Positions 2,532 to 62,696 of a stretch of 64,000 nucleotides of DNA are shown in pieces. The notes beneath the pieces were generated by a model. That model searched no databases, had not been told where the DNA came from, and worked only from the letters and a program-made list of their open reading frames with translations. Numbering within the stretch: position 1 is the stretch's first letter; the number at the start of each line of letters is the position of its first letter. Source of the stretch: Patescibacteria group bacterium. GTDB lineage: Bacteria > Patescibacteriota > Minisyncoccia > UBA6257 > 2-01-FULL-56-20. The stretch is taken from positions 2,444 to 66,443 of the forward strand of contig JBBTVY010000005.1 of NCBI GenBank assembly GCA_038063055.1. Reading direction: 5' to 3'. A program made the translations under genes and the position numbers.

Positions 2532-3383
2532 ATGAAGTACGTTTTCTTCGGCACGCCTGAATTTGCGGCCATTATAATTGAAAAGCTCGCGGATGCGGGT
2601 TTAATGCCGGCGGCCGTGATTTCAAACCCCGACAGACCCGCGGGAAGGAAAAAGATAATGACCCCTCCTCCGGCGAAGCTAATCGCAAACAGAAAGAACC
2701 TGAAAATTCTTCAGCCGGAAAATCCATCTTCGATAATCGAGGAATTATCGGAATTAAAAGCGGATTTTTTTGTCGTCGCGGCATACGCGAAAATACTTCC
2801 GAAAGAAATAATTGGTATCCCCCGACTTGGAACAATAGGCGTTCACCCTTCTCTTTTGCCGAAGTACCGGGGGGCTTCTCCAATTCAAAGCGTTATTCTG
2901 GCCGGAGAAACTGAAACTGGAGTTACCCTTTATCTAATGGACGAGAAAATGGACCATGGGCCAATTCTCGAAAATTCCAAATTCCAAATTCCAAATTCCA
3001 AAATTACTTACGAGAAATTGCTTAAGGAGTTGGCGGAGCTAGCCGGCAATTTGCTTGTCGAAACATTGCCAAAATTTTTAAGCGGAAAAATAAAGCCGGT
3101 GCCGCAAAACGAATCTGAGGCGACTTACACAAATAAAATATCCACCAAAGACGCCTTTGTGGACGAAAAAAAACTTGAGGAGGCGGTCGGCGGCAAAAAT
3201 ACCAAAGCCGCTCAAGAGATAGACAAAAAAATAAGAGCGCTTACGCCAGAGCCGGGTGTTTGGACCCTTCGACAAGCTCAGGGCAAGCAGCAAAGAGTAA
3301 AGCTTTTGGAGGCCGAATTTGCCGGCGGAAAATTAACTCTCAAAAAGATTCAAATCGAAGGCCAAAAGCCCAAAACCGCATAA
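2532..3383 (+). CDS. fmt: Methionyl-tRNA formyltransferase
   Basis: N-terminal 'VFFGTPEFA' and 'HPSLLPKYRGASPIQ' formyltransferase motifs; adjacent to def. Confidence 0.85.
   Translation: MKYVFFGTPEFAAIIIEKLADAGLMPAAVISNPDRPAGRKKIMTPPPAKLIANRKNLKILQPENPSSIIEELSELKADFFVVAAYAKILPKEIIGIPRLGTIGVHPSLLPKYRGASPIQSVILAGETETGVTLYLMDEKMDHGPILENSKFQIPNSKITYEKLLKELAELAGNLLVETLPKFLSGKIKPVPQNESEATYTNKISTKDAFVDEKKLEEAVGGKNTKAAQEIDKKIRALTPEPGVWTLRQAQGKQQRVKLLEAEFAGGKLTLKKIQIEGQKPKTA
2975..3003 (+). repeat. Tandem heptamer (CCAAATT)x3-4 inside fmt coding sequence
   Basis: 'ccaaattccaaattccaaattccaaaatt' is in frame and encodes 'KFQIPNSK'. Confidence 0.8.
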
Positions 3384-3458
3384 TTTTATTACCTGTCCAC
3401 AGAATATCTCTCCGACGGCGGTCGGCGGTGATACCGCGCCGCTCTGCGGCGCGGTTAT

Positions 3459-5579
3459 TCATTTTTCCGCGGATTCGGCTGTCTCCCAAATTTCTTTGTT
3501 CACATATTGACTTACAGTTTCAAGGTCATTGAGTAATTTCTCCTCGCGCATCTTTTCCTCCACGGAAAGTTCATTTTTGAGTTTGGCGCGGCGCATTAGG
3601 TCAAGTTCCAATTCTATATCCTTTCGCAGAACGGCGAAACCCCTCTTTATCGAATCCTCGGCGTCCTTGATTGCTTGTTTTAGGCGCTGGTTTTTGAGAC
3701 GGACATGGTAACCATGATAAAGCACGAATGCCAACAACCCCACGAAAGCAAGCGCGAAGATAATGAGTAAAAACAGGTAGAAATCCTCATAACTTAAGCG
3801 GGCGCCGCCTATCTGGATAGCTGTTTTGGCAACCAGGAGGTCGAATTTAGGGCTTGGGGGACTCACATCATTGGCAACTTTAAGCTGTGTCCAAGCAATG
3901 TAGCGGCTGGCTTCCAAAAATCGCGGGAAAGAGTAGAACCAAGCGCCGTTTTCATCGGTAACCGCCACCCGATTTTCCGTGGCTCCGGTGTCAATGTTTT
4001 GCAGATAGATTAAAACCTGGGCTTGGGGCACTCCGGCATTGCCGCCGATATAGAGAATTTCATCATTGGAAATTGACTTTGGGAAAAGAGTTACCACCGG
4101 AGGGTCCAGACGAACGTTGCTTAGAGAATCCTCGGCGGCTTGGGCGTGAAGGGTAAGAATACCGAAATTCACGACAAACATCAGATAAATAAGCATTAAA
4201 CCCTTATCCACGCCCCCTTCGCCGAAGCCAGGGCGAGGAGGCGAGCCGTAATCTTTTTGTTTTTCTTTGAGTTCGGCCAGCTTCCCGGAGATATTGGGAT
4301 GTTTCAAAATGTCCTTGACAAGGTATTTATCGATTTGCAGATGTCGTTTCCAGATCCATATCATTAAATAAACCATTAATCCTAAAAGAGCCAGGGCTAA
4401 AATCAAAACGTATGGCCACCCGAAGGTAACCCCGCCGACACTCAATCCCCCCGAATAGATAACTCCCAAGAAAGGCGCGGTTATTGTAAGTTTGCTCTCT
4501 GCTTGAAAGTAGTTGCCCGCCTGGTCGTAGGCGCGGACGACAATGTCGTATTTGCCTTGGTCTAAAACCCTTGAATATGGCGAATAAGCTTCGATAAAGA
4601 ACGGCGTGGTATTTTGGGCAACCAGGGCTTCCGGCAAATCCAAAGATATAATCTTCAGTTCATAGTGGTTTATCCCGGACACAACATCGGTTGTGACAAA
4701 ATCTATAATCGGGCGGTTGTTGGAAGTAATATGGCCTGGTGAAAAATTAAGTTTGAAAGCGGCAGGCGGCGTGTTATCAACTCGAATCACGTAATCGGTA
4801 ATGCCGCCCCAAGCGCCTTGCCGCAGACTTTTAATGTGGAAATAATAAACGCCGTCGGCAAGATTATTATAAACAACGCGATTTCGCGCTTCCTCCGATA
4901 TGTCATCGGGTTCGCCCCCTGGTTCCTGGTCCAGGACATAGCTGTATCCCTGTATATCGGGCGGCGCCGTCCATTCCAGCGTCACAGTTTTTGTGTTGTA
5001 CCACTTCTCCTGGTCAATGTTAGTGCGGGAAGTGACAGTCGGCCCCTGCGGCGGCGGCAGGGTGAGATAGTAAATCCCGTTCGTAGTTTGGCCCAACGTG
5101 TCAGTTCCGCGGCCGTCATTCAGAAGCACTTTCGAATCATCCAAGATTTTCAAAACGGCAGTACCGGTGCTTTTTACGCGAAAAGTAACGGTGGAAAGCA
5201 AACCGGCGTCGGTGTTGATGCCGGGAGTCGGAATAGTTCCCTGGAACTTAAGCGTGCCGTCGGTATTGGAATAGCTTGGTTGAACGACCCAAATCTGGAT
5301 TAAAGATTTTCCCGTTGTCGGTGAAACCACCTGAAGTTTATCCGCCGGAAAACTTAGGTCCGCCTCAATCGCGTTTATTGCCTGACCGCCGGTATTGACA
5401 TAGATTGAGACCGTAAAAGTGCCGCCTAAGGTAAAAGTTCCCGATGGCGGGGCCACGTAAAGAGAGGCGGCCGCCTCGGCGGAAACTCCGGAGAAAAACA
5501 TAAAAAACGCGGCAAGCAAAATAGCGGTCTTTGCCGCTATCTCGTGGATTTTCGCCAAGTAATTCATGCGTTCAAACAA
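3459..5579 (-). CDS. Membrane-anchored surface protein with N-terminal cohesin-like domain, Ig/FN3-like region, two TM helices and a cytoplasmic coiled-coil tail
   Basis: Signal/TM at N-terminus. Cohesin-like pattern 'LYVAPPSGTFTLGGTFTVSIYVNTGGQAINAIEADLSFPADKLQVVSP...GTDGTLKFQGTIP'. Hydrophobic helices 'YVLILALALLGLMVYLMIWIW' and 'LFLLIIFALAFVGLLAFVLY'. K/E-rich C-terminus. Confidence 0.6.
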   Translation of the reverse strand: MFERMNYLAKIHEIAAKTAILLAAFFMFFSGVSAEAAASLYVAPPSGTFTLGGTFTVSIYVNTGGQAINAIEADLSFPADKLQVVSPTTGKSLIQIWVVQPSYSNTDGTLKFQGTIPTPGINTDAGLLSTVTFRVKSTGTAVLKILDDSKVLLNDGRGTDTLGQTTNGIYYLTLPPPQGPTVTSRTNIDQEKWYNTKTVTLEWTAPPDIQGYSYVLDQEPGGEPDDISEEARNRVVYNNLADGVYYFHIKSLRQGAWGGITDYVIRVDNTPPAAFKLNFSPGHITSNNRPIIDFVTTDVVSGINHYELKIISLDLPEALVAQNTTPFFIEAYSPYSRVLDQGKYDIVVRAYDQAGNYFQAESKLTITAPFLGVIYSGGLSVGGVTFGWPYVLILALALLGLMVYLMIWIWKRHLQIDKYLVKDILKHPNISGKLAELKEKQKDYGSPPRPGFGEGGVDKGLMLIYLMFVVNFGILTLHAQAAEDSLSNVRLDPPVVTLFPKSISNDEILYIGGNAGVPQAQVLIYLQNIDTGATENRVAVTDENGAWFYSFPRFLEASRYIAWTQLKVANDVSPPSPKFDLLVAKTAIQIGGARLSYEDFYLFLLIIFALAFVGLLAFVLYHGYHVRLKNQRLKQAIKDAEDSIKRGFAVLRKDIELELDLMRRAKLKNELSVEEKMREEKLLNDLETVSQYVNKEIWETAESAEK

Positions 5580-6853: not shown

Positions 6854-6882
6854 ATTCTAAATTCTAAATTCCAGATTCCATA

Positions 6883-7986
6883 CTAACCTGTCCAGTAGAA
6901 CGCGAGTACGCTGAAATCGTCCAAATTAATCTTATTGTCGACTTTTAAGTCCAGACTGGATGGCGGATCCGAACGATTATACCAGTAGGCCAGTATCGAA
7001 AAATCGACAATGTTGATTTTGCAATCACCGTTCAGGTCCCTGAACAAGCTGGAACAGGAAACCTGCTGTTTGGCGGTCACATTTTTGGTTCCGACAATAA
7101 AGTTAACAATATTTCCGTAACCGCTGGCTTCAAGATTTCCTATGGAAGCTTTTGATTTCGCCGAGTACGAGCCATAATCGAGAACGGTCGTGTCGAAATT
7201 ATATAAATAAACTCCGTTCTTGTCCGAAATTGTCTTGCCAAAAAAATTTGGACTGGAAGATATCGTTATGACAATATCGGATTGCGGCGAACTTTGGCCG
7301 AAAATAATTATATCGTCCCCTCTTTTCACTTCCTCTTTGTCGACCTTGATTGTGGGCGCTATAAAAATACCGGTAACGTTCATGGTTATCCCATAAATCA
7401 CGCTGACCGGAAAAGCAAGGAGGCTGGAACGGACGTCGTTTTTGTCTTCGCCATAAAAAGAAAAAATATAATTTCCCGCGGAAATATTAGATAAGGTTAT
7501 CTGAAACAAAGCGTCGCTTCCGGCGATTGTCGTCGCCGCAACCTGAGCGTCTTTAAGAAGAGTCACTTCGCTTGAAGGATAGGCTCTTCCTGAAAAAACA
7601 ACTTGCGTCGGTGAGATAAAATATCCTCCCCCGCCACCAACGCCGACAACTCCACCACCGCCTCCGCCGCCAACGGTGCACGCGGAGGTGTCGAATGTGC
7701 AATCGACTTTACATCCTAAAATTCCTCCGCTAAATCCCTGACTGACGCAAGATTGTCCGCCAAGCGCGGCATCATCGCATTGCTCGCCTGCATCCAATAT
7801 CGCGTTTCCACACACTGAAGGAATCGAAGCGCTGATGTTTACGGAAGCCGCGAAAACAACTTGGTTATAATTTAGAAAATAGTCCGCCAAAGGCGTATCC
7901 GCTTCCGACGGAAAAACCAAAAATAAAATCGAGGCGAAAAATATTATCAGGGAAATCAATAAAAACCTGGAATAATTATTTGTCAT
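6883..7986 (-). CDS. Secreted/membrane-anchored Cys- and Gly-rich protein with C-terminal type-I dockerin module
   Basis: N-terminal TM. Cys-rich block 'CGNAILDAGEQCDD'; poly-Gly tract. Two dockerin Ca-binding repeats 'DLNGDCKINIVDFSILAYWY' and 'DLKVDNKINLDDFSVLAFYW'. Confidence 0.6.
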   Translation of the reverse strand: MTNNYSRFLLISLIIFFASILFLVFPSEADTPLADYFLNYNQVVFAASVNISASIPSVCGNAILDAGEQCDDAALGGQSCVSQGFSGGILGCKVDCTFDTSACTVGGGGGGGVVGVGGGGGYFISPTQVVFSGRAYPSSEVTLLKDAQVAATTIAGSDALFQITLSNISAGNYIFSFYGEDKNDVRSSLLAFPVSVIYGITMNVTGIFIAPTIKVDKEEVKRGDDIIIFGQSSPQSDIVITISSSPNFFGKTISDKNGVYLYNFDTTVLDYGSYSAKSKASIGNLEASGYGNIVNFIVGTKNVTAKQQVSCSSLFRDLNGDCKINIVDFSILAYWYNRSDPPSSLDLKVDNKINLDDFSVLAFYWTG

Positions 7987-34630: not shown

Positions 34631-35314
34631 TTATACCAATATGTATTTTCCTTTTTCCTCGTCCCTTATTATTCTGCCTCTGTCTATCGTCACGACGCGC
34701 TTGCCGAGGTCGTTGATTATGTCTTTGTCGTGGGTCGCGAGAATCAGCGTCGTCCCGAGTTCATTTATCTTCTTCAGAAGCGCGATAATTTCGGATGTGT
34801 GAAAAGGGTCGAGATTTCCCGTCGGCTCGTCGGCGATGATAACTTCAGGCCGGTTGACCATGGCGCGCGCGATGGCGACCCTCTGCTGTTCGCCGCCTGA
34901 AAGTTCGTGCGGGAAGTTTTTAAACTTGTCGCTGAGGCCGACCATCTCGAGAACCTGCGGCACCATTTCTTTTATTTCGCTCTGCAGCCTGCCTGCGGCT
35001 TCCATGGCGAAAGCGACGTTTTCGTAGGTATTCTTGTTTGACAAAAGCCGGAAATCCTGGAAGACGACTCCGATATGACGCCTGAAAAGCGGAAGTTTAT
35101 GGTCGTCAAGTTTGTTCACTTCGTACTGTCCGAAAAATATGCGGCCGCGAGTCGGTTTTTCTTCGCCTATCAATAGCTTGATGGCTGTGGATTTTCCGGC
35201 CCCGGAACGTCCAACTAAACAAACAAATTCCCCCGGATTTATCCTGAGATTGAAGTCTTCAAGGGCCACCGAGTGGCTGTTATAGATTTTAAATATCGAT
35301 TGAAAGGCAATCAT
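34631..35314 (-). CDS. ftsE: Cell-division ABC transporter ATPase FtsE
   Basis: 'GRSGAGKST', '[14 protein letters not shown]', '[11 protein letters not shown]'. Confidence 0.85.
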
Positions 35315-35405
35315 AATGGGCGAGAATCTAGAAGCTAGAAAATGGAATCTAGAAACGATTTAACTCTCGTATTATAACCTAATTCAGATAAATTTATCAA
35401 CTTGA

Positions 35406-36460
35406 TTACAATTTTTCCACTTCTGCCTCGATAAAAACGTCTAAATTGCCGTTTAGCACTTCGTCCACCTGCGTCGTTTCGGCCTCCGTCCTGTGGTCTT
35501 TTACGAGCTTATACGGATTCATCACATAAGAGCGTATCTGGCTGCCCCATTCGGGTTTGACGTTGACGCGGAGGTTGGCCAGTTCTTCAACCTTGTGCTT
35601 TTCCATAAGTTGCGAGAGTTTGGATTTCAATAAGCTCAAGGCGCGCTGGCGGTTTTGTTCCTGCGAGCGTTCCGCGCGCGAACCAGCCGACAATCCCGTC
35701 GGAATATGGACTATTCTGACGGCGGTTTCAACTTTGTTGACGTTCTGTCCGCCTGGGCCCCCGGAACGTGAAAATTCCAGCTTCAAATCCTTTTCAGGAA
35801 TTTCTATTTTAGATTCTTCCACCGCGGGAAGTTCAGGCGTCACTTCAACCAGAGCGAAAGAAGTGTGCCGCAATTGTTTTGACGAAAACGGCGAAACTCT
35901 TACCAGCCGGTGGACGCCTGATTCGCCTTTCAAATATCCGAAAGCGTACTCCCCTTTTATTTCGAGCGTCCGCCGATTCGGCGTGTCGTCCAAAACTTCG
36001 GCTTTCCATCCGCGCCTGACCGCGTAGCTCTTGTACATATCAAAAAGCATCAAAGCCCAGTCGCCGGCGTCCTCTCCTCCCGCGCCGGGATAAACCGAGA
36101 CTACCGCCGTTTCTTTGTCGTACTTGCCCTTGAAAAGTTCCACGAGTTCCAGCTGCCTGAATTTTCTTTTGGCTTCGTGAAATTTATTTATGGTAAGCGG
36201 AGTCGAACCACTTTTGTTCAATTCCTTCTCGAGTTCTTCGATTAAATTTTCCACTTCGCGGTGACGCTTTATCAAAGCATCGAGCTCGCCGAAAGTTTTT
36301 ATTTTTTCGTCCGCCGTTTGCCTGTTCAGCCAAAAATCAGGCCGCGACATTCCGGCTTCGATTTCGTTCTTCAGTTTTTCTTTTCCGGCGACGTCAAAGC
36401 CGGCCGCCTAAACGGCGGCATTCGGTTTTAAGCTCCTGTAATTCTTGTTTGATATCCATG
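35406..36460 (-). CDS. prfB: Peptide chain release factor 2 with programmed +1 ribosomal frameshift (CUU UGA C) at about 36393..36399
   Basis: Frame 0 '[21 protein letters not shown]' then UGA. The +1 frame continues '[22 protein letters not shown]...' into the listed ORF. 'SPF' and 'GGQ' motifs present. Confidence 0.85.
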
Positions 36461-36466
36461 GGGAGA

Positions 36467-36712
36467 TTATAGTTCTTTTTTAATTTGATTCCAATCAACT
36501 TCGCTTATCTCTTCTAATTCTTTGAGTACATATTTTAAAGTTTGTTTGGGCAGATAAAAAGGAATAGTTACGGATTTCTGATTTCTCGGCCATATTGCTT
36601 TAAAATGGCTTCCGTTTCCGCCAACTTTATTAATTTCAAAACCTACCCTTTGCAGGGCTTTACAAAAACGATTCTGCTTAATTTCTCCAGGTAATTCACT
36701 AAGCGAGGGCAT
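36467..36712 (-). CDS. hicA: HicA-family mRNA interferase toxin
   Basis: YcfA/HicA-like 'LQRVGFEINKVGGNGSHFKAIWP...VTIPF'. Confidence 0.6.
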   Translation of the reverse strand: MPSLSELPGEIKQNRFCKALQRVGFEINKVGGNGSHFKAIWPRNQKSVTIPFYLPKQTLKYVLKELEEISEVDWNQIKKEL

Positions 36713-37025
36713 AGGCGTTCTGCCGTTCCCCTTCCCTAATTATTGCTGCCTCTTTTTTGTAAGAAGAAGGAACTTCGAATGAAGTCAAAATCGCATCTCT
36801 CACGTTTTTATCGAGTTCTTCCAAATTACGCCCATGGGCAATTATGCTGCCGTATTTAAAATTAGTACTAACAGAAACTATAAGACCATCGTCTTTATGA
36901 TTTTTGAATTCAATCGCGCCATACTGCCTGAAATATTTATTAAGCTCATAAAGCCCGCTGGGAACGACCGCCTTCCCCAACAAAACCTTTATCGCCTTGT
37001 CTTTTGCTACTTTAATTAAGTTCAT
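36699..37025 (-). CDS. hicB: HicB-family antitoxin (RNase H-like N-terminal domain)
   Basis: UPF0150-like 'YGAIEFKNHKDDGLIVSVSTNFKYGSIIAHGRNLEELDKNVRDAI'; 14-nt overlap with hicA. Confidence 0.5.
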   Translation of the reverse strand: MNLIKVAKDKAIKVLLGKAVVPSGLYELNKYFRQYGAIEFKNHKDDGLIVSVSTNFKYGSIIAHGRNLEELDKNVRDAILTSFEVPSSYKKEAAIIREGERQNAYALA

Positions 37026-37235
37026 TTATGGTGAGCTATGTCGAACTATTAGATGCTCTTTAATACGACCTAATTTAATATATGTCAATGCAATTTCTAT
37101 TTATTTTAAATTATAGCATATTCTATTCGCTTAGTCCTTGCTTGAGGTCCATGGGGAGATTATACATAAATTGTTGGATTTTGAAAGTTATAAAAATGAA
37201 GCAGGCATTGCCGAGTTCAGATATCTCGGTCAGAT

Positions 37236-37994
37236 TTAATTTTGAACCTTATAATCGTGGATGACGGCATCATCTGGCAAGGAAGAAATATCAAAGCCCG
37301 CTTCATTATAAGTTATAATTCTTTGTAGTTCTGTTTTATCAATGGGCTTTTTTTGGATTATTTTTCCAAAAATAATGCAGTTTGGATGCCAAACTCCCGG
37401 ATCACCATTTGTCACTTGTAAATGTAGGGCGATGGCGTGGTGATTTTTTTCAGCTTTTACGGTTTTGACAGCGATGCTCTGAGGCAAAATTTCTGATACT
37501 CTAGTAAAATCAAGTTCTACCGAAAGCTCGTAAAAACTGATTTGTGGGCATTGCACACTTTCCCATTCGAAAATTATCAAATCCTCACTTTCCCTTTTTG
37601 TTGCCAAATTATATTTAGGCAGATATTCACGTGGAGCTGGGGTAAAAACACAATGCAGGCGAAACCCATGCTCGTTAAATGGTTGAGGCTCGACTTCTTC
37701 TATCAGGTGTTCTTCCTTGCTTCCAATGCTTCTCCTTTTTAAATAAAGACGTTTTGGGTGAATAGAAAGGTGAATTTCCTCACCATTTTCGACTACCCGT
37801 TTTTTTAATTTGTTTGTAGAAAAATCGCCGAAAGATCTCAATAAATGAAACGGTTCAGCAACGTCGAGCGGAGTTTTTTCGTCTGCGAGATGGTTATATA
37901 AGAAATAACTTCCGTCCTTTCCTGAATAAAAAATGGACAAAAACTTGTAATAATCTTTTTTGGTTTTTAGGAGAACGATTATTCTTTTTCTCAT
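37236..37994 (-). CDS. Hypothetical protein (252 aa) between tRNA-Ile and hicAB
   Basis: ORF only; no recognisable motif. Confidence 0.45.
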   Translation of the reverse strand: MRKRIIVLLKTKKDYYKFLSIFYSGKDGSYFLYNHLADEKTPLDVAEPFHLLRSFGDFSTNKLKKRVVENGEEIHLSIHPKRLYLKRRSIGSKEEHLIEEVEPQPFNEHGFRLHCVFTPAPREYLPKYNLATKRESEDLIIFEWESVQCPQISFYELSVELDFTRVSEILPQSIAVKTVKAEKNHHAIALHLQVTNGDPGVWHPNCIIFGKIIQKKPIDKTELQRIITYNEAGFDISSLPDDAVIHDYKVQN

Positions 37995-38061
37995 AATAGT
38001 AGCATGGTCAGTTTCATAATATCCTAGAGTGGAAATGGTATCTCGATGAAAATATCGTTTG

Positions 38062-38134
38062 TGGGCCAGGAAGGACTCGAACCTTCGATCCTCAAGGTAT
38101 AAGCTTGATGCTTTAGCCGCTAAGCTACTGGCCC
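38062..38134 (-). tRNA. tRNA-Ile with UAU anticodon (reads AUA)
   Basis: Clean cloverleaf GGGCCAG/CTGGCCC, anticodon stem TCAAG/CTTGA, loop CTTATAC (U33, A37), T-loop TTCGAGT, A73. Confidence 0.7.
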
Positions 38135-38144
38135 AAAACTGAGA

Positions 38145-39980
<1,836 letters not shown>

Positions 39981-44938: not shown

Positions 44939-44985
44939 TGGTTACTAATTTACAGATTTTTACGAATATACGAATAGATTTTATT
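44939..44985. repeat. Truncated copy of the 78-bp palindromic 5'-UTR element, directly upstream of the rpsB start
   Basis: 'ggttactaatttacagatttttacgaatatacgaata' has 2 mismatches against 50621..50657. Confidence 0.7.
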
Positions 44986-50618: not shown

Positions 50619-50625
50619 TGGGTTA

Positions 50626-50703
50626 CTAATTTACAGATTTTTATGAATATACGAATAAAAATTTTGTTTATTTATAAAATTCGTATATTCGTACTGATTC
50701 GTA
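50626..50703. repeat. 78-bp palindromic element in the rpsH 5' UTR, identical to 53996..54073
   Basis: 'ctaatttacagatttttatgaatatacgaataaaaattttgtttatttataaaattcgtatattcgtactgattcgta' contains the inverted repeat gaatatacgaata/tattcgtatattc. Confidence 0.85.
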
Positions 50704-53988: not shown

Positions 53989-53995
53989 GGTGTTG

Positions 53996-54073
53996 CTAAT
54001 TTACAGATTTTTATGAATATACGAATAAAAATTTTGTTTATTTATAAAATTCGTATATTCGTACTGATTCGTA
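53996..54073. repeat. 78-bp palindromic element in the rpsC 5' UTR, identical to 50626..50703
   Basis: Exact 78/78 match by eye. Confidence 0.85.
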
Positions 54074-60029: not shown

Positions 60030-62135
60030 CTACTTCCTTTTACCCTCGATTATTAATTGCGCGATATTGTTTGGTGTGGGTTCATAACTGCTAAATTCCA
60101 TGCTAAAACTGCCTCGTCCCTGCGTCAGCGAGCGGAGCGCCGTGGCGTAACCGAACATTTCCGACAGCGGGACTTTGGCGTCTATAACTTTGATATTGGC
60201 CCTGTCGCCGATGGTTTCTATTTTGCCGCGCCTGGAATTTATATCCCCCGTTGTTTCTCCGAGAAAGTCCTGCGGGATTATTACCTGTGTTTTCATTATC
60301 GGTTCGAGAATAACGGCTTTGGCGCGCTTGGCGGCTTCCTGAAAAGCCATTGAACCGGCGATTTTGAAAGCGGCCTCCGAAGAGTCCACTTCATGAAATG
60401 AACCGTCGTAGAGCGACACTTCGACGTCAACCACCGGATAGTGCGCGAGCACGCCTCTGTCCAGCGCTTCCTTTACTCCTTTCTCGACGGCGGGAATGAA
60501 TTCGTTCGGGATTATTCCTCCTCTAATCTTGTTAACGAAAACAAAACCCTGTCCGCGCTCGAGCGGCTTTACTTTCAGCCAGACATGGCCGTACTGGCCG
60601 CGGCCGCCGGACTGGCGGATATATTTGCCTTCGGCTTCGGCTTCGCCGCTGATTGTTTCCTTGTATGCGACCTGCGGGCGGCCGACATTGGCTTCGACGC
60701 CGAATTCCCTTTTCATTCTGTCAACGATTATTTCCAAGTGAAGTTCGCCCATGCCGGAAATTATCGTCTCTCCGGTTTCAGGGTCGCCGGCGACGCGGAA
60801 AGTCGGGTCTTCGTCGGCCAGGCGGTGCAACGCGGTACCCATTTTTTCCTGGTCGGCTTTTGTCTTGGGTTCGATTCTGATGCCGATAACCGGTTCCGGA
60901 AATATTATTCTTTCCAGAATTATCGGGGAATCTGGATTGCATATGGTGTCGCCCGTACCCGTGTTTTTCAATCCGACTATGGCGGCTATTTCTCCGGCGT
61001 AAACTTCTTCCACTTCTTCGCGCTGGTTGGCGTGCATCCTTACGATACGCCCGACGCGCTCCTGCTCGCCTTTTGTGGCGTTCAAAACGTAAGAGCCGCG
61101 CTTAATAACCCCCGCGTAATTCCTGAAATAAGTCAGACTGCCGACGTAAGGGTCGTTCGCTATCTTGAAAGCGAGAGCGGTGAACGGTTCTCCGTCATCC
61201 GCCTTTCTGAAAATTTCTTCTCCTGTTTTTAAATCGATTCCCTTGACCGGTGGCAAATCCGAAGGCGAAGGAAGATAATCGACTACCGCGTCCAGAACCA
61301 GCTGAACTCCTTTATTCTTCAGCGCCGAACCGGTGAACACCGGAATTATTTTGTTTTCGATAGTCGCTTTTCTCAGGGCGCGCCTCAGGTCGTCGATGTG
61401 AATTTCTTCTCCGGCAAGATATTTTTCCATGAGCGCGTTGTCGTTGTCGACAACTGCTTCAATCAGTTTCCGGCGATATTTTTCCATATCCGCTTTCATT
61501 TCTTCCGGAATCGGTATTTCAACGACGCGCTCGCCGTGTTCTCCCTGGAATTCGAAAGCTTTCTTTTGCAATAAATCGACGAGCCCGCGGAAATTTGATT
61601 CCGAGCCGATTGGCAGCTGGACTGGAAAAGCGCAGTTGGTCAGGCGCTCTTTTATGGAAGCCAGGCTTTTTTCGAAACTCGCGCCCATGCGGTCCAGTTT
61701 GTTTATGAAGCAGACCCTCGGAACTTTGTATTCTTCGGCGTAATGCCAGTTCGTTTCCGACTGCGGCTCCACGCCGGCGACGCCGTCGAAAACCACCACG
61801 GCTCCGTCGAGAACGCGCAACGAACGCTTTACTTCAACGGTGAAATCGATGTGACCCGGAGTGTCTATGAGGTTTATGCGGTATTCGAAATTTTTGTCGC
61901 CGTCGCGGTAAGTGGGAACCCAGAAAGCGGTTGTGGCCGCGGCGGTAATGGTAATGCCGCGTTCCCTTTCCTGCTCCATCCAGTCCATGACCGTGTCGCC
62001 CTCATGCACTTCTCCGATTTTGTGCGAAACGCCGGTGTAAAAAAGAACGCGTTCGCTGACGGTGGTTTTTCCCGCGTCAATGTGGGCGATTATTCCTATA
62101 TTCCTTGTTTTTTCGATGGGATATTGTCTGGGCAT
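60030..62135 (-). CDS. fusA: Elongation factor G
   Basis: 'AHIDAGKTT', 'DTPGHIDF' and EF-G domains. Confidence 0.95.
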
Positions 62136-62228
62136 AATCTTAAAGAATCTAGAATCTAGAAAATAGAATCTAGTAGGATTTTTTTAAAACTAATCTGAAT
62201 TCTGGATTCTAGTTTCTGATTTCTGAAT

Positions 62229-62696
62229 TTACCTGGCGAAATGCGCGAAAGCTCTGTTGGCTTCGGCCTGGCGGTGCATGTCCTGTTTTTTCTTGACCGC
62301 GTCTCCTTCGTTTTTGGACGCGGCAATTATTTCGGTTGCCAGCTTATCGGCTATCGGCTTTCCCTTTTTTGCTCTGGCGGCCTGGATTATCCAGCGCACC
62401 CCCAAAATGAAACGCCGCTCCGGTCTGACCTCGCGCGGCACCTGATAATTGGCTCCTCCTACGCGCTTCGAAAAAACCTCGAGCATCGGCGAAGCGTTGG
62501 CCAGCGCCTGTTCGAAAATTTCCATCGGTTCTTTTTTGGTTTCTTTCTTTATTTTTTCAAAAGCTCCATAAACGGCTTTACGCGCGATAGTTTTCTCGCC
62601 TTTCCGCATTACGTAATTTATGAAACGCCCGACGTCCACCCGGTTATATTTAGAATCCGCCTGATGATATTTTTTGTAAACTCGTTTCTTCCTCAT
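62229..62696 (-). CDS. rpsG: 30S ribosomal protein S7
   Basis: S7 family pattern; str operon position. Confidence 0.9.
   Translation of the reverse strand: MRKKRVYKKYHQADSKYNRVDVGRFINYVMRKGEKTIARKAVYGAFEKIKKETKKEPMEIFEQALANASPMLEVFSKRVGGANYQVPREVRPERRFILGVRWIIQAARAKKGKPIADKLATEIIAASKNEGDAVKKKQDMHRQAEANRAFAHFAR

Follow-up and report, generated by a model that had tools for sequence, protein, structure and literature searches.

The 64-kb stretch of DNA analyzed here (hereafter, the window) comes from a Parcubacteria genome whose source habitat is Hainich groundwater, and carries a hicB-hicA toxin-antitoxin cassette inserted at the start of prfB, the gene for RF2. The prfB gene consists of a 21-codon frame-0 open reading frame (ORF; 36394..36459) that terminates at the site of +1 frameshifting, CTT TGA C (36399-36393), and of a +1 frame (35406..36395) encoding the PCRF and RF-1 domains; all window features described below are, like prfB, on the minus strand unless a strand is given. 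Upstream of prfB lie hicA (36467..36712) and a hicB-like gene (36699..37025), the contents of a 660-bp module in which hicB precedes hicA and the two genes overlap by 14 nucleotides (nt). On either side of the module is a copy of the prfB promoter and start. This arrangement was compared with loci from relatives (denoted by L numbers); those found through PrfB, at 63-80% identity to that of the window, are metagenome-assembled genomes labelled Paceibacterota, Liptonbacteria or Parcubacteria.

The duplicated prfB promoter and start

A search of the 64-kb window for the 17-mer TCCATGGGGAGATTATA returned exact matches at 36455-36471 and 37148-37164 and no third site when up to 3 mismatches were allowed (0.07 expected by chance). 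A first-pass annotation of this DNA, which had reported two occurrences, placed the left one exactly, whereas the right one (given as 37147-37163) was off by +1. Similarly, the extended imperfect repeat that it put at about 34 bp is real and brackets the cassette, but measures 33 nt (36439-36471 vs. 37132-37164), with 28/33 identical positions (85%) and a spacing of 693 nt. Both copies read TATAAT-CTCCCC-ATGGA, in keeping with the annotation. The prfB-proximal copy (36439..36471) comprises the TATAAT box (36471-36466), the CTCCCC discriminator, the prfB ATG (36459-36457) and the first 7 codons, a layout also seen at prfB of the relatives; it reads TATAAT-CTCCCC-ATGGATATCAAACAAGAATTA, leads into the 21-residue frame-0 product and then CTT TGA C, and is the true prfB start. 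The distal copy (37132..37164; TATAAT at 37164-37159, ATG at 37152-37150) reads TATAAT-CTCCCC-ATGGACCTCAAGCAAGGACTA and opens the stub ORF MDLKQGLSE* (37123..37152; ATG at 37152, stop at 37125-37123), a truncated 5' end of prfB. As the annotation had it, this is a remnant: the stub is non-functional, and it is not conserved as an ORF, the start codon being lost (ATA) in the L078 homologue.

The distal copy retains the ancestral promoter context of prfB (37165..37200), with a degraded −35 element (TTCAAA vs. TTGAAA in the relatives compared, L008, L036, L037 and L038), and its upstream sequence CAATTTATGTATAAT is the prfB promoter context of L056. In L008 and L036, the prfB start reads cTATAATCTCCCC-ATGGACCTCAAGCAAGAA and equals the distal copy of the window at 29/29 nt over TATAAT..CAAG. 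Directly upstream of the proximal copy are hicA codons, not the ancestral prfB context, and the hicA stop codon (36469-36467) falls within the left TATAAT box. The window stub is, moreover, nearer to prfB starts of other lineages (14/16 with L008) than to the window's own prfB (11/16).

Empty sites and prfB-linked cassettes in relatives

In five to six relatives, among them L008, L036, L037, L038 and L006, a single prfB promoter/start is present and hicBA is absent. These single-copy relatives, together with the ancestral context of the distal copy, make insertion of the cassette at the prfB start, as originally proposed, well supported. When a cassette-free variant was sought through the exact PrfB protein, all of the contigs found (6/6) also carried hicBA and none lacked it; the cassette is therefore fixed in the window population. 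Outside this population, the cassette is found at prfB in L010 (92% amino acid identity) and in L077/L078 (89%), with an identical hicA/TATAAT junction, and the window and L078 also share the stub-cassette junction, ..AAGCGAAT(A/G)GA(A/T)TATGCTATAAT. The L078 stub, TACAAT-CTCCCC-ATAAACCTCAAACAGG, contains a 21-nt in-frame insertion that is present in the functional prfB of L038 and absent from L078's own prfB, so that the two L078 copies are different alleles.

In L038 and L039, the 21-nt insertion follows prfB codon 5 (codons 6-12), in frame, and can form a hairpin, e.g. CTCGTCTGCCGTTGAGGCAGG; the same insertion occurs in two relic stubs of other lineages, namely that of L078 and one in L010 at 2444.

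Stubs of the prfB start were identified upstream of prfB in 4 of ~11 close lineages, the inserts being hicBA, an unrelated ORF165 (L033) and an orf147 block (L010). In addition, the identical 17-mer TATAATCTCCCCATGGA heads ORF73, an unrelated gene of 74 amino acids (aa), in L037; no ORF73 homologue was found in the window. The repeat thus belongs in part to a wider dispersed set, which the annotation had envisaged as an argument against its own reading, and the ORF73 17-mer together with the stubs with other inserts indicates that the module was recurrently copied in this region and is not a one-off scar.

In L033, the second prfB promoter/start, TATAATCTCCCAATGGACATCAAGCAAGAATTACAAGAACTTA, lies ~1 kb upstream of the real prfB, with ORF165 in between; the second start region, a remnant of the prfB hairpin (see below) and ORF165 are located at 2858-3010 and 3104-3601. 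The stub and ORF165 are in turn enclosed by a separate direct repeat of ~50 nt (2737-2790 and 3645-3695) that has the form of a terminator-like hairpin. In L010, hicB is adjoined by the first 12 codons of ORF73, a member of another leaderless gene family; this sequence was considered as a decayed prfB stub, and that assignment was rejected. The prfB-type stub of L010 is further upstream, before the orf147 block, which in the sister lineage L036 directly precedes prfB. L010 therefore holds two relic leaderless starts (2432-2480 and 3202-3262) in the order prfB-type stub, orf147 block, ORF73 5' end, hicBA; related loci are L036 3410-3850 and L037 1684-1920. Neither ORF165 nor the small ORFs of L010 gave a family match.

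The distribution of the cassette is patchy, and its carriers (window, L010 and L078) do not form a clade: in the host tree, the closest lineage to L010 is L036, which is empty (96% bootstrap), while L078 falls together with L033 and another empty lineage, L037. Between the window, L010 and L078, hicBA shows a synonymous divergence (dS) of 0.64-0.84 and a non-synonymous divergence (dN) of 0.03-0.06; for prfB, ftsE and ftsH of the same genomes, dS is 1.25-1.5 and dN is 0.08-0.14. By this measure, the cassette is younger than the genomes that carry it.

The hicB-hicA module

The toxin gene encodes an 81-aa protein that matches Pfam PF07927 (E = 1e-7; 32.4 bits, cut-off 27), in which residues 15-66 cover positions 3-56 of the 58-position profile. 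Inspection of the translation showed GSH at residues 34-36, a candidate for the conserved catalytic histidine in its G-x-H context; a phmmer search of HicA against the PDB gave no match. The upstream gene encodes a 108-aa HicB-like protein with two extra N-terminal helices and without a recognizable DNA-binding domain. Neither this protein nor its 30 homologues matched any Pfam (E up to 5), NCBIfam or PADLOC model, and a profile of the 30 homologues gave chance-level matches only against PDB sequences. Sequence searches having yielded nothing meaningful, the sole lead came from fold comparison, in which the predicted structure best matches HicB N-domains, a partial RNase H / double-stranded RNA-binding domain (dsRBD)-like beta-beta-beta-alpha fold. 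No C-terminal helix-turn-helix (HTH) or ribbon-helix-helix (RHH) domain was found in the structure model or in hidden Markov model (HMM) scans. The antitoxins of hicAB classes 1 and 2 have no DNA-binding domain, whereas those of classes 3 and 4 have an HTH or RHH domain, and the HicB-like protein is thus consistent with classes 1 and 2 (PMC10865869).

The pairing of hicB with hicA is kept in L010, L078, L079 and L093. The HicB-like family is small (35 clusters, 0 with a Pfam annotation; the few taxon-labelled ones are Patescibacteria/Liptonbacteria) and had been unannotated before it was defined here. With a HicA-family gene and its overlapping HicB-like partner between the two copies, the repeats bracket hicB-hicA exactly, in agreement with the annotation. 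Judged from its sequence, the module is a type II toxin-antitoxin system with the antitoxin gene first and two candidate promoters of its own, situated ~22 nt inside the 5' end of prfB; the toxin-antitoxin action of HicA and its 108-aa partner is putative.

Of the two candidate promoters, P1 is an extended −10 element, TGCTATAAT (37110..37118), with TGnTAYAAT recurring at the corresponding position of cassettes found elsewhere, and P2 is TTGACA-17-TATTAA (37060..37088), ~35 nt upstream of the hicB ATG; the P2-type arrangement, TTGAC(A/G)-17-(−10), is kept in L010, L078, L089, L091 and L093. Given these conserved promoters and the loss of the distal ATG in L078, the cassette does not appear to depend on the prfB promoter. 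The claim that it reuses that promoter is therefore doubtful, all the more so as, in L010, the 5' end of another gene takes the place of the stub beside hicB. The distal prfB promoter copy, which is intact in the window, may still fire.

Transcription and frameshifting of prfB

The predicted present-day promoter of prfB (36466..36494) consists of TTGGAA, a 17-nt spacer and TATAAT, the latter overlying the hicA Leu-stop codons, and the −35-like TTGGAA sits in the hicA codons D-W-N (Asp-Trp-Asn). TTGGAA-17-TATAAT scored a 10/12 match in a promoter scan, and its sequence is kept in L010 and L078. Across ~20 relatives, prfB is preceded by TATAAT-N6/7-ATG with no Shine-Dalgarno sequence (in the window, the spacer is CTCCCC, 6 nt). 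This conservation, in the layout expected of a leaderless gene, makes a leaderless prfB, or the near-leaderless transcript of the annotation, plausible; −10 boxes 4-9 nt before the start codon are found at ~8/57 of the window ORFs. Thus, prfB is now probably transcribed as a leaderless mRNA from the TATAAT 6 nt before the AUG, with a −35 element provided by hicA. No terminator was found between hicA and prfB, so that read-through from the hicBA promoters into prfB is possible; on such transcripts, the start codon of prfB would lie internally and would lack a Shine-Dalgarno sequence.

The frameshift site has CUU, an in-frame UGA and a following C, with the body of RF2 in the +1 frame. A GC hairpin, GCCGCC-GTTTA-GGCGGC (36403..36419), ends 3 nt upstream of the shift site. 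All-GC hairpins of 6-10 bp, located 3-4 nt before CUU UGA C, are present in the window and in L006, L009, L012, L040 and L016, and their 3' arm is the G-rich, Shine-Dalgarno-like stimulator of the prfB shift site. Pairing is kept via compensatory changes (GCCGCC/GGCGGC, GCCCCGC/GCGGGGC, GCCCGCC/GGCGGGC) and register shifts, non-synonymous changes included. Single-sequence z-scores of the hairpin ranged from −0.8 to −4.0; RNAalifold predicted no consensus structure upstream of the frameshift site, because the register of the hairpin shifts between lineages. On a leaderless mRNA, the hairpin may mask an internal Shine-Dalgarno-like sequence.

Related cassettes at other loci

Related cassettes were also found before metK (L079), between fusA and a YgjP-like gene (L082), before nusA (L091) and, with hicA deleted, in a type IV pilus operon (L085). 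In L085, hicA is reduced to a 16-codon in-frame remnant (3827-3862), leaving the hicB-like gene an orphan. In L093/L094, a gene for a 596-aa serine recombinase (L093 668-2458) precedes the cassette at a distance of 43 nt. Direct repeats flank the cassettes of L089 (58 nt at 88% identity) and L079 (20 nt at 95%); at three further cassette sites, no flanking repeats were detectable. The repeats differ in sequence between sites: that of L089 (1636-1693 and 2470-2527) includes a long terminator-like hairpin, and that of L079 (3484-3503 and 4193-4212) is AT-rich and promoter-like and precedes a metK leader resembling an S-adenosylmethionine (SAM) riboswitch. In every context examined, hicA ends in YTA-TRR (Leu-stop: CTATAA, TTATAA, TTATAG, TTATGA); the CTATAA at the prfB junction is thus native to the cassette.

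Origin of the insertion

The anatomy of the locus, the cassette-free relatives, the assignment of the proteins to families and the measured divergence are observed; from these, we infer a mode of joining, promoter activity, leaderless translation and lateral spread as follows. Recombination, with no transposase involved, would have joined the hicA end (..CTA TAA) to the prfB −10 box (cTATAAT) via a 6-7-nt microhomology. A second copy of prfB positions −12 to ~+22, contributed either by the incoming DNA or during repair, would have kept an intact promoter/start beside the presumably essential prfB, and the original copy, including the ancestral −35 element, would have been left upstream as a decaying stub. 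Later, the unit of stub, cassette and promoter would have moved between related Parcubacteria lineages via recombination in the flanking prfB. For Patescibacteria, homologous recombination genes and natural competence have been reported (PMC12455944). The non-clade distribution of the cassette, the low divergence of hicBA and the allele mismatch in L078 favor recombination-based capture and spread via flanking homology; with its regenerated prfB start, hicA-embedded −35 element and later spread, we regard this scenario as the best explanation, and on balance a probable one.

The most direct competitor, a single ancient insertion in the ancestor of the clade followed by strictly vertical descent, with several precise losses via the flanking repeats and no lateral transfer, would account for the stub-cassette and hicA/TATAAT junctions that the window shares with L078 and for the different degrees of stub decay, and direct repeats do permit scarless deletion. 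On the host tree, however, it calls for at least 4-5 independent precise losses; furthermore, dS and dN of hicBA are about half or less of those of the flanking housekeeping genes in 3/3 pairwise comparisons, and the window stub is almost undecayed. We consider this history possible but unlikely. The annotation had instead suggested a target duplication; in the sense of transposition, the staggered cut of a transposase or integrase would have produced a true 34-bp target-site duplication in situ, the copies having since diverged. That the repeats bracket the cassette exactly, that cassettes in two other contexts (L089 and L079) are flanked as well, and that a gene for a large serine recombinase immediately precedes one member of the family (L093) are all compatible with such an event, as is the ability of some insertion sequence (IS) elements, e.g. 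IS1634, to make long and variable direct repeats. Yet only hicB and hicA lie between the repeats: no recombinase, transposase or integrase gene is found in the 660 bp, and no terminal inverted repeats pairing the cassette ends were found. The repeat length differs threefold between sites (20, 33 and 58 nt), the junction on the side of prfB consists of microhomology to the native end of hicA, the stub and functional start of L078 differ by the 21-nt indel and are different alleles, and the window stub is closer to L008 than to its own prfB. We therefore doubt the transposition-type duplication and judge it quite improbable.

It is also conceivable that there was no duplication at this locus at all, TATAATCTCCCCATGGA being a generic leaderless promoter/start module and the distal copy the promoter of a small gene or of the cassette. 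The occurrence of the identical 17-mer before the unrelated ORF73 in L037, the identity of the L010 sequence beside hicB as the 5' end of ORF73, not of prfB, and the closely spaced −10 boxes of other window ORFs would all agree with this; the coding bases that follow the ATG of the distal copy (ATGGACCTCAAGCAAG), however, match prfB, not ORF73, at 16/16 positions, the sequence upstream of this copy is the one seen at orthologous prfB promoters, and the 64 kb contain only two copies and no ORF73 homologue, which makes a generic module very improbable.

Several observations weigh against recombination-based capture and spread as outlined here. The hicBA dS derives from ~120 synonymous sites and the host dS is near saturation, so that the conclusion on capture and spread is tentative. 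The 17-nt core is perfectly identical in the window, whereas a neutral relic of the age of the cassette divergence should have changed; to account for the identity, one has to assume that the event was recent, that gene conversion has acted or that the distal promoter is under selection. The final 8-10 nt of the stub (AAGCGAAT) can be assigned to the ORF73 family and to prfB about equally well, so that neither the precise position of the left junction nor the count of events is certain. Conservation of the hicA 3' end does not exceed that of the remaining cassette, i.e. this end carries no extra signal of promoter constraint, and thus we infer, rather than observe, its function as the prfB promoter. 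Finally, leaderless initiation, the prfB promoter and the share of each of the four candidate promoters in transcription are predicted features.

A variable islet upstream of prfB

A tRNA-Ile gene (anticodon TAT (UAU); 38061-38134) is located between ftsH and the variable region and was the only match in an Rfam scan of 35300-38300. Between the tRNA gene and the stub lies orf252 (37236-37994), which gave no Pfam, NCBIfam or PADLOC match and had no homologue in any fetched relative locus. The stretch from tRNA-Ile to prfB contains different lineage-specific ORFs in every relative; it is a variable islet within which the promoter/start module has been repeatedly copied. The stubs in 4 of ~11 lineages with three kinds of insert, the 17-mer at ORF73 and the 20-58-nt duplications elsewhere raise the possibility, which we put forward with considerable doubt, that the leaderless prfB 5' end is a recurrent gene-capture site in these Parcubacteria, at which newcomers would be joined to prfB a few codons into the gene and a fresh promoter/start regenerated each time. 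If so, each capture would leave a promoter-bearing stub able to drive, or fuse to, the captured gene, and lineage-specific genes punctuated by promoters would come to form an array from tRNA-Ile to prfB, an integron-like accretion without an integrase. Should such promoter/start copying be general, genes could be captured and expressed at once in a simple, enzyme-free way.

On recombination-based capture, a streamlined, probably competent, ultra-small bacterium could take up a selfish cassette before a presumably essential gene with its expression kept, owing to the duplicated promoter/start and to a cassette 3' end that doubles as promoter sequence. The relatives also provide comparative evidence for a leaderless prfB across a clade of Parcubacteria, which bears on translation initiation in this group. 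A literature search, incomplete in coverage and weak as evidence, found nothing on leaderless prfB in the candidate phyla radiation (CPR) or on toxin-antitoxin cassettes with promoter duplication.

Two other repeated elements were noted in the window. A nearly identical leader of ~45 nt, aatttttattcgtatattcataaaaatctgtaaattagtaacc, is located immediately upstream of three different ORFs (~44939-44983, 50619-50663 and 53989-54033, minus strand). The motif tctagattc(c/t)attttctag(c/a)ttctagattc occurs at 35315-35359 and 62136-62180 (minus strand), just upstream of ftsE and of a 701-aa ORF (60030-62135), respectively, with looser copies at 62196-62240 (plus strand) and 6854-6898 (minus strand).

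Comparison with known systems

The locus holds a divergent representative of the known hicBA modules, in an insertion architecture that is both unusual and recurrent. Among the classes described so far, the antitoxin-first 'Class 2 hicBA' (Gerdes 2024) comes closest; it is characterized by a reversed gene order and a small HicB of 63-103 codons with no recognizable DNA-binding domain (PMC10865869). The window module resembles this class in its 81-aa HicA_toxin protein, in the antitoxin gene that comes first and overlaps the toxin gene, and in a small antitoxin with a HicB-type partial RNase H / dsRBD-like fold in the structure model and no HTH or RHH domain; it differs in that the antitoxin is unrecognized by Pfam, NCBIfam and PADLOC models, is slightly above the size range at 108 aa and has the two extra N-terminal helices. 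As in classical +1 frameshifting of prfB, CTT TGA C follows 21 codons and a G-rich GGCGG is found 4-9 nt upstream, whereas, unlike in the classical case, the prfB mRNA of the window appears to be leaderless and its G-rich stimulator forms the 3' arm of a GC hairpin that is conserved among relatives.

With respect to architecture, the locus is reminiscent of integrative elements that carry a replacement end of their target gene, such as islands and phages in the ends of tRNA or protein genes: a gene end is interrupted, an intact end is regenerated and a truncated duplicate remains on the far side, and the two copies need not start out identical. In contrast to these elements, there is no integrase in or next to the window element, the duplicate is a promoter with a 5' coding end, not a 3' end, and both the targets and the flanking repeats of related cassettes vary. 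Naturally competent bacteria are known to undergo homology-facilitated illegitimate recombination, or microhomology-mediated template switching, when they take up DNA; neither process is known to have been demonstrated in Patescibacteria. The likeness to these processes, which for the window is derived from junction sequences, consists in one junction that falls within the extended homology of prfB and a second one at a short microhomology, in a flanking duplication of variable length and in an insert that encodes no dedicated enzyme.

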